DNA of 45,708 nucleotides, from the NCBI GenBank assembly GCA_964242885.1, contig CAXTBU010000009.1:5015-50722 (forward strand), written 5' to 3'. The position numbers and the translations under genes were made by a program. Origin of the DNA: an uncultured Actinomycetales bacterium. GTDB taxonomy: Bacteria; Actinomycetota; Actinomycetes; CAXTBU01. The notes beneath the pieces are model-generated. The model made no database searches and was not told the origin of the DNA. It saw only the letters and a program-made list of their open reading frames with translations. Position 1 is the stretch's first letter. Each line of letters opens with the position of its first letter. Of the stretch, positions 26,532 to 30,074 are shown in pieces.

Positions 26532-30074
<3,543 letters not shown>

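Follow-up and report, generated by a model that had tools for sequence, protein, structure and literature searches.

The RNA polymerase beta subunit encoded by rpoB in a 45,708-nucleotide stretch of DNA from an uncultured Actinomycetales bacterium (hereafter the window; contig CAXTBU010000009.1 of assembly GCA_964242885.1) carries three substitutions, D675E, N677G, and N684G, at positions of a highly conserved link-region motif that are known to determine resistance to natural-product inhibitors, and further fixed changes in beta and beta' fall on sites of the same kind. The altered motif is real and is fixed throughout a family whose only RNA polymerase carries it; that family is represented by two genera among species genomes together with metagenome relatives. 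The explanation that we favor, at a probability of roughly 0.5, is a lineage-fixed reshaping of inhibitor pockets across two subunits, by which the enzyme is predicted to resist salinamide, GE23077, and pseudouridimycin (PUM).

The Link-Region Motif of RpoB

Residues were numbered by alignment to E. coli K-12 RpoB, which was fetched by accession. The gene, the motif, and its codons are as follows.

26532..30074, minus strand: rpoB, RNA polymerase beta subunit, 1180 aa (open reading frame list, translation, and NCBIfam match)
28230..28271, minus strand: link-region motif [14 protein letters not shown], equivalent to E. coli beta 673-686
28263..28265, minus strand: beta D675E, GAG (Glu); salinamide contact and high-level resistance site
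28257..28259, minus strand: beta N677G, GGG (Gly); salinamide contact and high-level site, named as important for PUM
28254-28256, minus strand: beta Arg678, CGC, kept
28236..28238, minus strand: beta N684G, GGC (Gly); GE23077 and PUM determinant

Across the extended link region, the rpoB translation reads [26 protein letters not shown]. The canonical motif HDDANRALMG[AS]NMQ is not matched, with 3 of 14 residues differing. These three substitutions, along with the retention of R678, had been called at the same codons in an earlier note on this DNA, and both the translation and the alignment to the E. coli protein bear this out. The note had further placed the motif among the most conserved in RpoB, in good agreement with the outgroup states: among 115 actinobacterial RpoB sequences, Asp675 is found in 115, Asn677 in 113 (the other two have Ser), and Asn684 in 115. 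The window protein gives full-length matches to the RpoB equivalogs TIGR02013 (1740.6 bits, cut-off 801.15) and NF001616 (1722.1 bits, cut-off 896), and its link region is a variant inside the bacterial RpoB family that provides no ground for excluding the protein from it.

Rarity, Fixation, and Authenticity

The rarity of the motif was gauged with two patterns. Both demand exact flanking residues, and variants with differing flanks are therefore missed. The pattern D[DE]xxRALMGxGMQRQ, which contains Gly684, was matched at 4 loci in 185,579 species genomes, namely, one contig of genome G001 and three Nonomuraea genomes. The pattern [10 protein letters not shown] was matched by 14 contigs from two lineages in 241 million metagenome records and had no match in 400 further genomes sampled from the phylum. 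Of 120 clusters listed from a collection of 5.8 billion proteins, the motif is present in the five closest to the window protein (81-95% identity over residues 540-700) and absent from the other 115. The earlier note had allowed that the motif might turn out to be widespread; because the species-genome, protein-cluster, and metagenome scans all find it to be very rare, this objection falls.

Among the species genomes covered, the family has just one further member, G001. It belongs to a different genus and has an identical motif, with 80.6% identity over the surrounding 180 aa. The other genomes of the same class from which the locus was obtained (n = 27) are all canonical, 25 with HDDANRA and 2 with HDDASRA; three of these loci (L011, L019, and L023) come from genomes flagged as unpublished, and without them the count is 24 of 24. 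Five of the 14 metagenome contigs fall in the window clade (about 70% G+C, 90-97% identity, the triple motif together with Tyr574). Glu675, Gly677, Gly684, and Tyr574 occur jointly in 7/7 clade RpoB sequences and in 5 further metagenome contigs. In a tree of 124 sequences, computed from window residues 412-810 with the motif columns masked and rooted on E. coli, the 12 tips with all three changes form a single clade at support 1.0. The codons within this clade vary synonymously, with GGG, GGC, or GGA at 677 and GGC or GGG at 684. This turnover shows that the new residues are under purifying selection and are thus inherited and retained, not miscalled.

Three artefactual sources of the motif were considered, namely, a mistake in assembly or sequencing, a chimeric bin, and an extra divergent paralogue in place of a working rpoB, and the assembly is indeed fragmented. 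However, a search of the genome (3.21 Mb in 135 contigs, 92.78% complete) finds one rpoB, which stands in the canonical rplJ-rplL-rpoB-rpoC context, and its 1180-aa frame is open with full-length family scores. A contig built independently from run X1, possibly the source sample, has 0 differences to window positions 27900-28543 and is identical across the motif; runs X2 and X5 contain relatives at about 91-97% identity to the window. The remaining matches in public runs come mostly from rpoB genes of other organisms and are uninformative on the motif. Moreover, the same residues are found in 12 clade sequences from separate assemblies that differ synonymously. An assembly error, which the earlier note had held open, can be set aside on these grounds, and the artefact explanation as a whole is effectively refuted.

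Further Substitutions in Beta and Beta'

When the 7 clade RpoB sequences are compared with the 115 actinobacterial outgroups, just 10 columns combine conservation of at least 97% outside the clade with a change in all of its members. E. coli has the conserved residue at six of them: S574Y, D675E, N677G, N684G, K1078A, and A1284S. For RpoC, 5 core and 2 side-branch sequences were compared with 114 outgroups, many of which are similar 1270-aa proteins, so that this outgroup is less diverse. Sixteen deeply conserved RpoC positions are changed family-wide, with M697V and A779T among them.

28569..28571, minus strand: beta S574Y, TAC (Tyr); Ser in 112/113 outgroups; clade-fixed
27375..27377, minus strand: beta K1078A, GCG (Ala); Lys in 110/113 outgroups and E. 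coli; clade-fixed
22470..26504, minus strand: rpoC, beta' subunit, 1344 aa, directly downstream of rpoB; NADFDGD catalytic loop intact
23889..23891, minus strand: beta' A779T, ACG (Thr), in the bridge helix; Ala in 112/114 outgroups and E. coli; high-level salinamide site
24090..24092, minus strand: beta' M697V, GTC (Val); Met in 114/114 outgroups; salinamide-resistance site

The rpoC fragment of G001 confirms A779T, M697V, M725I, Q504K, and K598N. Beta' Arg738 is replaced in one branch only, by Val in G001 and P0128 and by Ala in P0129. The three link-region changes listed in the earlier note are all real, but they are a partial picture, in which beta' A779T, M697V, and R738V/A and beta S574Y were missed. 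Taken together for beta, the canonical outgroups (110-115 sequences) and E. coli have Asp675, Asn677, Asn684, Ser574, and Lys1078, whereas the window clade has Glu, Gly, Gly, Tyr, and Ala.

Other substitutions are fixed in the family at sites conserved from the Actinobacteria to E. coli. In addition to K1078A, these are beta' A456P (24822-24824), Q504K (24678-24680), K598N (24387-24389), and M725I (24051-24053), all with codons on the minus strand, and beta' R731T, near residue 824; several of them lie near the catalytic loop or the bridge-helix cap in sequence. In rifampicin cluster I, H526 and S531 are kept in 7/7 clade RpoB sequences. The change T525A in this cluster is present in the window RpoB and in a Firmicutes fragment (L051, …LAHKRR…) and is not clade-fixed.

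Overlap with Inhibitor Sites

Resistance to salinamide maps to beta' 690, 697, 738, 748, 758, 763, 775, 779, 780, 782, and 783 and to beta 569, 675, and 677; the five high-level sites, all of which are drug contacts, are beta' Arg738, Ala779, and Gly782 and beta Asp675 and Asn677 (PMC4029172, Degen et al. 2014). The same work predicts that any larger side chain at beta' Ala779 clashes with salinamide and that the replacement of beta Asp675 or Asn677 should break hydrogen bonds to the drug. For GE23077, the resistance positions in E. coli are beta 565, 566, and 684, and those in S. pyogenes are 565, 681, and 684; Asn684 forms hydrogen bonds with GE23077, its substitution is expected to break contacts, and a purified Lys684 enzyme is GE23077-resistant (PMC3994528, Zhang et al. 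2014). Resistance to PUM arises from changes at beta 565, 681, and 684 and at beta' 786, and four residues, beta 677, 681, and 684 and beta' 932, are singled out as important and lacking in the human enzymes (10.1101/106906, Maffioli et al. 2017 preprint). In E. coli, S574Y is a bulky change near the rifampicin pocket that gives low-level resistance (PMC7073797). The assignment of beta 675 and 677 to the salinamide determinant and of beta 684 to the GE23077/PUM determinant, made in the earlier note, agrees with these sites.

In the window's genus, three of the five high-level salinamide residues are replaced (beta D675 and N677, beta' A779), and in the G001 branch, with the addition of R738V/A, four of the five. 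Among the GE23077 and PUM sites (beta 565, 566, 681, and 684; beta' 786), 684 alone is substituted. The salinamide-resistant E. coli alleles (PMC4029172) share with the clade the positions beta 675 and 677 and beta' 697 and 779, as well as beta' 738 in the G001 branch, but those alleles were selected in the laboratory, whereas the changes in the clade are natural, combined, and fixed family-wide. With the GE23077- and PUM-resistant alleles, the clade shares beta 684, where the Asn684 carboxamide is likewise lost; a GE23077-resistant allele named in PMC3994528 is Lys684, whereas the clade has Gly684.

These positions suggest to us a route by which the inhibitors could be evaded. The changes lie in three adjoining pockets. 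In the salinamide pocket at the bridge-helix cap, D675E and N677G remove or shift hydrogen-bonding side chains, beta' A779T adds bulk on the bridge helix, and M697V alters the pocket wall, with R738 also missing from one branch. At the i+1 nucleotide site, N684G and N677G strip away carboxamides that are used by GE23077 and PUM, and at the rim of the rifamycin pocket S574Y adds bulk. The chemistry would be left intact, such that the enzyme would still transcribe yet bind salinamide poorly, because hydrogen-bond partners are lost and a clash is added, as judged from the published structures. By the same structures, GE23077 and PUM should lose the contacts to Asn684, and PUM those to Asn677 as well, and the binding of these two is probably also poor. 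As read from its sequence, the sole polymerase of the family is probably naturally insensitive to three natural antibiotics. The selecting agent may have been contact with such compounds in the habitat, as opposed to their production by the lineage itself, although we infer this only weakly.

The residues that we take to be those of the beta active centre (R678, E813, D814, K1065, K1073, R1106, and H1237), whose state was checked here, are unchanged in the clade, as are beta E565, G566, M681, and Q688 and beta' R425, N458, D460, D462, D464, T786, M932, R933, and H936. By unchanged we mean that every clade member having a residue at the position keeps it; the beta active-centre set is identical to that of E. 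coli in 7/7 sequences.

Drug Selection, Retuning, or Self-Protection

Several observations weigh against the pocket-reshaping explanation. The overlap with resistance sites is one of position, at which Glu675, Gly677, Gly684, and Thr779 are candidate resistance alleles. D675E is a conservative replacement, and the other GE23077 and PUM determinants (beta E565, G566, and M681; beta' T786 and M932) are among the unchanged residues. Three changes within 10 conserved columns do not reach significance in a scan statistic (P = 0.067); the observation draws its strength from how conserved and how seldom altered these residues are, and not from their proximity. In favor of pocket reshaping, of 22 clade-fixed substitutions in 1024 deeply conserved columns, 4 fall on the 12 conserved salinamide sites (hypergeometric P = 7e-5), a value that we treat as descriptive because the test is post hoc and the sites lie close to one another in space. 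At deeply conserved columns, clade members deviate at 8-13 of 490 positions in RpoB, against an outgroup maximum of 8, and at 20-25 of 534 in RpoC, against an outgroup maximum of 6, and the matches to drug sites could be a by-product of a general remodeling of the active center. Because drug pockets are functional hot spots, the overlap cannot separate drug selection from catalytic retuning.

Compensated drift or functional retuning is the main rival, to which we would give somewhat less than even odds. It holds that a fast-evolving enzyme acquired epistatic adjustments of bridge-helix-cap dynamics and nucleotide handling, with any insensitivity to inhibitors being no more than a side effect. 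Of the sequences compared, those of the clade depart the most from the deeply conserved columns of both subunits, above all in beta', and many of its fixed changes lie off documented drug sites (beta' A456P, Q504K, K598N, M725I, and R731T; beta K1078A). D675E always accompanies N677G in two independent lineages, as expected of a structural pair in which a longer acid stands beside a deleted side chain, and an N677S intermediate exists; the co-occurrence of Glu675 and Gly677 fits a structural pair and drug selection equally. Retuning is also favored by the loss of four invariant beta' cysteines in the window's genus. What it accounts for less readily is that four of the six fixed RpoB changes at deeply conserved sites coincide with resistance positions of three drug classes (574, 675, 677, and 684) and that two to three more changes in beta' fall on salinamide sites, which exceeds random scatter over conserved columns. 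In addition, the new residues are under purifying selection.

The four cysteines, beta' Cys814, 888, 895, and 898, are replaced in 5/5 sequences of the window's genus by Asp, Asp, Ser, and Ser, respectively.

23784-23786, minus strand: codon of beta' 814
23553-23555, minus strand: codon of beta' 888
23532-23534, minus strand: codon of beta' 895
23523-23525, minus strand: codon of beta' 898

E. coli and 112-114 outgroups have Cys without exception at these positions, which we take to hold the ligands of the second zinc site, and the sister branch (G001, P0128, and P0129) keeps all four. The first zinc site (C70/72/85/88) is kept wherever the sequence covers the region, which is missing from P0129. 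In the open literature searched, nothing relevant to the beta' Cys814/888/895/898 zinc site was found. For an essential enzyme to lose a structural metal site in this concerted way may be as unusual as the reshaped pockets themselves.

A further explanation would have the lineage itself make an inhibitor of the salinamide, GE23077, or PUM type and protect its own target. Target modification is a common self-resistance strategy, and the changed residues are exactly drug contacts. Nevertheless, we consider self-protection improbable. Scans of the 3.2-Mb genome for the condensation domain of nonribosomal peptide synthetases (NRPS, PF00668) and for TruD (PF01142) gave 0 matches each, and the scan for ketosynthase (PF00109) gave one, in a 436-aa open frame. 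The lack of an NRPS condensation domain counts against self-resistance because salinamide and GE23077 are peptides; with the genome at 92.78% completeness, this absence is not proof, and biosynthetic genes could therefore have been missed, which counts also against the favored explanation. The changes are shared by two genera and by several metagenome populations, well beyond a single strain. Finally, the PUM producer is thought to rely on exporters of the major facilitator superfamily (PMC7835738).

Recurrence in Other Lineages

In favor of pocket reshaping, parts of the set of changes are also found elsewhere. The remaining nine of the 14 metagenome contigs (L048, L049, L051-L053, L057, L058, L060, and L061) belong to a distant lineage of 48-57% G+C and about 65% identity, which reads [16 protein letters not shown] and has the Glu675-Gly677 pair with Asn684 kept. 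Its full-length relatives are labeled "MAG: Firmicutes bacterium" (P0244-P0257). Among the 120 clusters listed with these relatives, 14 have Glu675 with Gly677, the 11 nearest relatives of these have Asp675 with Ser677, and 90 are canonical; the rest are one unrelated cluster (P0272) with Gly677 and Asp675, three with other residues at 676 and 677, and one outside the pattern. In the masked tree, the Firmicutes Glu/Gly group is monophyletic (23 tips, support 1.0) and sister to the Ser677 group (34 tips jointly, support 1.0).

The Firmicutes lineage shares the D675E and N677G pair with the window clade but differs from it in its phylum label, in its sequence (the identity of about 65%), in the retention of N684 and Asn574, and in an RpoB of 1333-1413 aa; cluster P0246 is an 844-aa fragment. 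Its proteins (P0244-P0268) form a series from Asn677 to Ser677 and then to Gly677 with Glu675, with Asn684 retained throughout. The path to N677G in this lineage, by way of N677S as an intermediate, fits single-base steps from AAY to AGY to GGY.

The three Nonomuraea genomes have two rpoB genes each, and it is the second copy (L039, L040, and L041) that carries N684G and Tyr574, with Asn at the H526 position (LANRRRMSALG) and with D675 and N677 kept. These Gly684 genes branch with the canonical rpoB of Nonomuraea itself (6 tips, support 0.996). The second copies look like the known rpoB(R) paralogues, which, in the part of PMC5431353 that was accessible (D'Argenio et al. 2016), are described as a second rpoB with an H526N-type change in rifampicin cluster I; position 684 is unmentioned in that part of the paper. 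The Nonomuraea copies, which arose by duplication within the genus, adjoin in their genomic context (L043-L046) an EryCIII/GT28-type glycosyltransferase and ECF-type sigma factors, and no NRPS or polyketide synthase was found within ±19 kb of the N684G paralogue. The window rpoB was itself considered as an rpoB(R)-type paralogue, as in Nonomuraea and Nocardia, and this was ruled out, with the gene being single copy and H526 being kept. Whereas the Nonomuraea rpoB(R) is an extra paralogue beside a canonical copy, the window gene is the only copy, keeps both H526 and S531, and is unrelated to it by descent.

The placements in the masked-motif tree indicate that the D675E and N677G pair arose independently at least twice and N684G at least twice. 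A broader form of the pocket-reshaping explanation, which we put forward tentatively, is that this free-living family may run on a naturally multi-inhibitor-proof polymerase, in which the salinamide pocket, the GE23077/PUM i+1 site, and the rifamycin rim are all blunted, by a route that evolution would have found repeatedly (D675E with N677G twice, N684G twice).

Relatives and Genomic Context

The closest solved chains to the window RpoB are 7vpd_C, 8dy7_C, 5tw1_C, and the 5uh5 group, which match residues 8-1180 or 27-1180 at about 1940-2090 bits; we take them to be Streptomyces and Mycobacterium enzymes. With the canonical actinobacterial RNA polymerase, the window enzyme shares the operon as well as the catalytic and substrate-contact residues, and its identity to named Actinomycetia is 70-76% over residues 540-700. 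Two ribosomal protein genes lie upstream.

30652-31038, minus strand: rplL, upstream of rpoB (Pfam Ribosomal_L12)
31091-31945, minus strand: rplJ, upstream of rpoB (Pfam Ribosomal_L10)

The gene order rplJ-rplL-rpoB-rpoC is the canonical rplJL-rpoBC arrangement, and nusG also lies on the minus strand of the window, which has a G+C content of 71.6%. The longest open reading frames of rplJ (31091-31945, minus strand; 284 aa, with the L10 domain at 64-159) and nusG (34595-36235, minus strand; 546 aa, with the NusG domain at 367-470) are both far longer than usual. Either the starts have been called too far upstream, which is likely in DNA so rich in G+C, or the proteins have N-terminal extensions. 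Beyond its conserved core, RpoC has a C-terminal tail of about 70 residues (window about 22470-22700) that is of low complexity, with an abundance of Tyr, Gly, Asp, and Ala; the whole protein has 1344 aa, as compared with 1304-1324 aa in the closest relatives and about 1270-1300 aa in other Actinomycetia.

Implications

In the open literature searched, part of it accessible only as partial text, no report of natural variants at beta 675, 677, or 684 was found. We regard the polymerase as a new natural form of a thoroughly studied enzyme and not as a novel type of system. GE23077 and PUM have been promoted as leads on the view that their target residues are too constrained to mutate freely (PMC3994528; 10.1101/106906). 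Here, beta 684, the PUM-important 677, and most of the high-level salinamide residues are naturally replaced in the only polymerase of a family, and parts of this set recur in two other lineages. The series from Asn to Ser to Gly, with Asp to Glu beside it, offers a clean example of a stepwise path at a site that is usually regarded as invariant.

If the enzyme is insensitive, it would provide a natural map of viable escape routes and of their compensating partners, as well as a gauge of how much variability in the bridge-helix cap and the i+1 site is compatible with transcription. If it is fully sensitive, the side chains in question would matter less for binding than the structures suggest. 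Were the polymerase of this family indeed proof against multiple inhibitors, then a "privileged" active-center target that is supposedly hard to mutate would be rewritable within a sole, essential enzyme.
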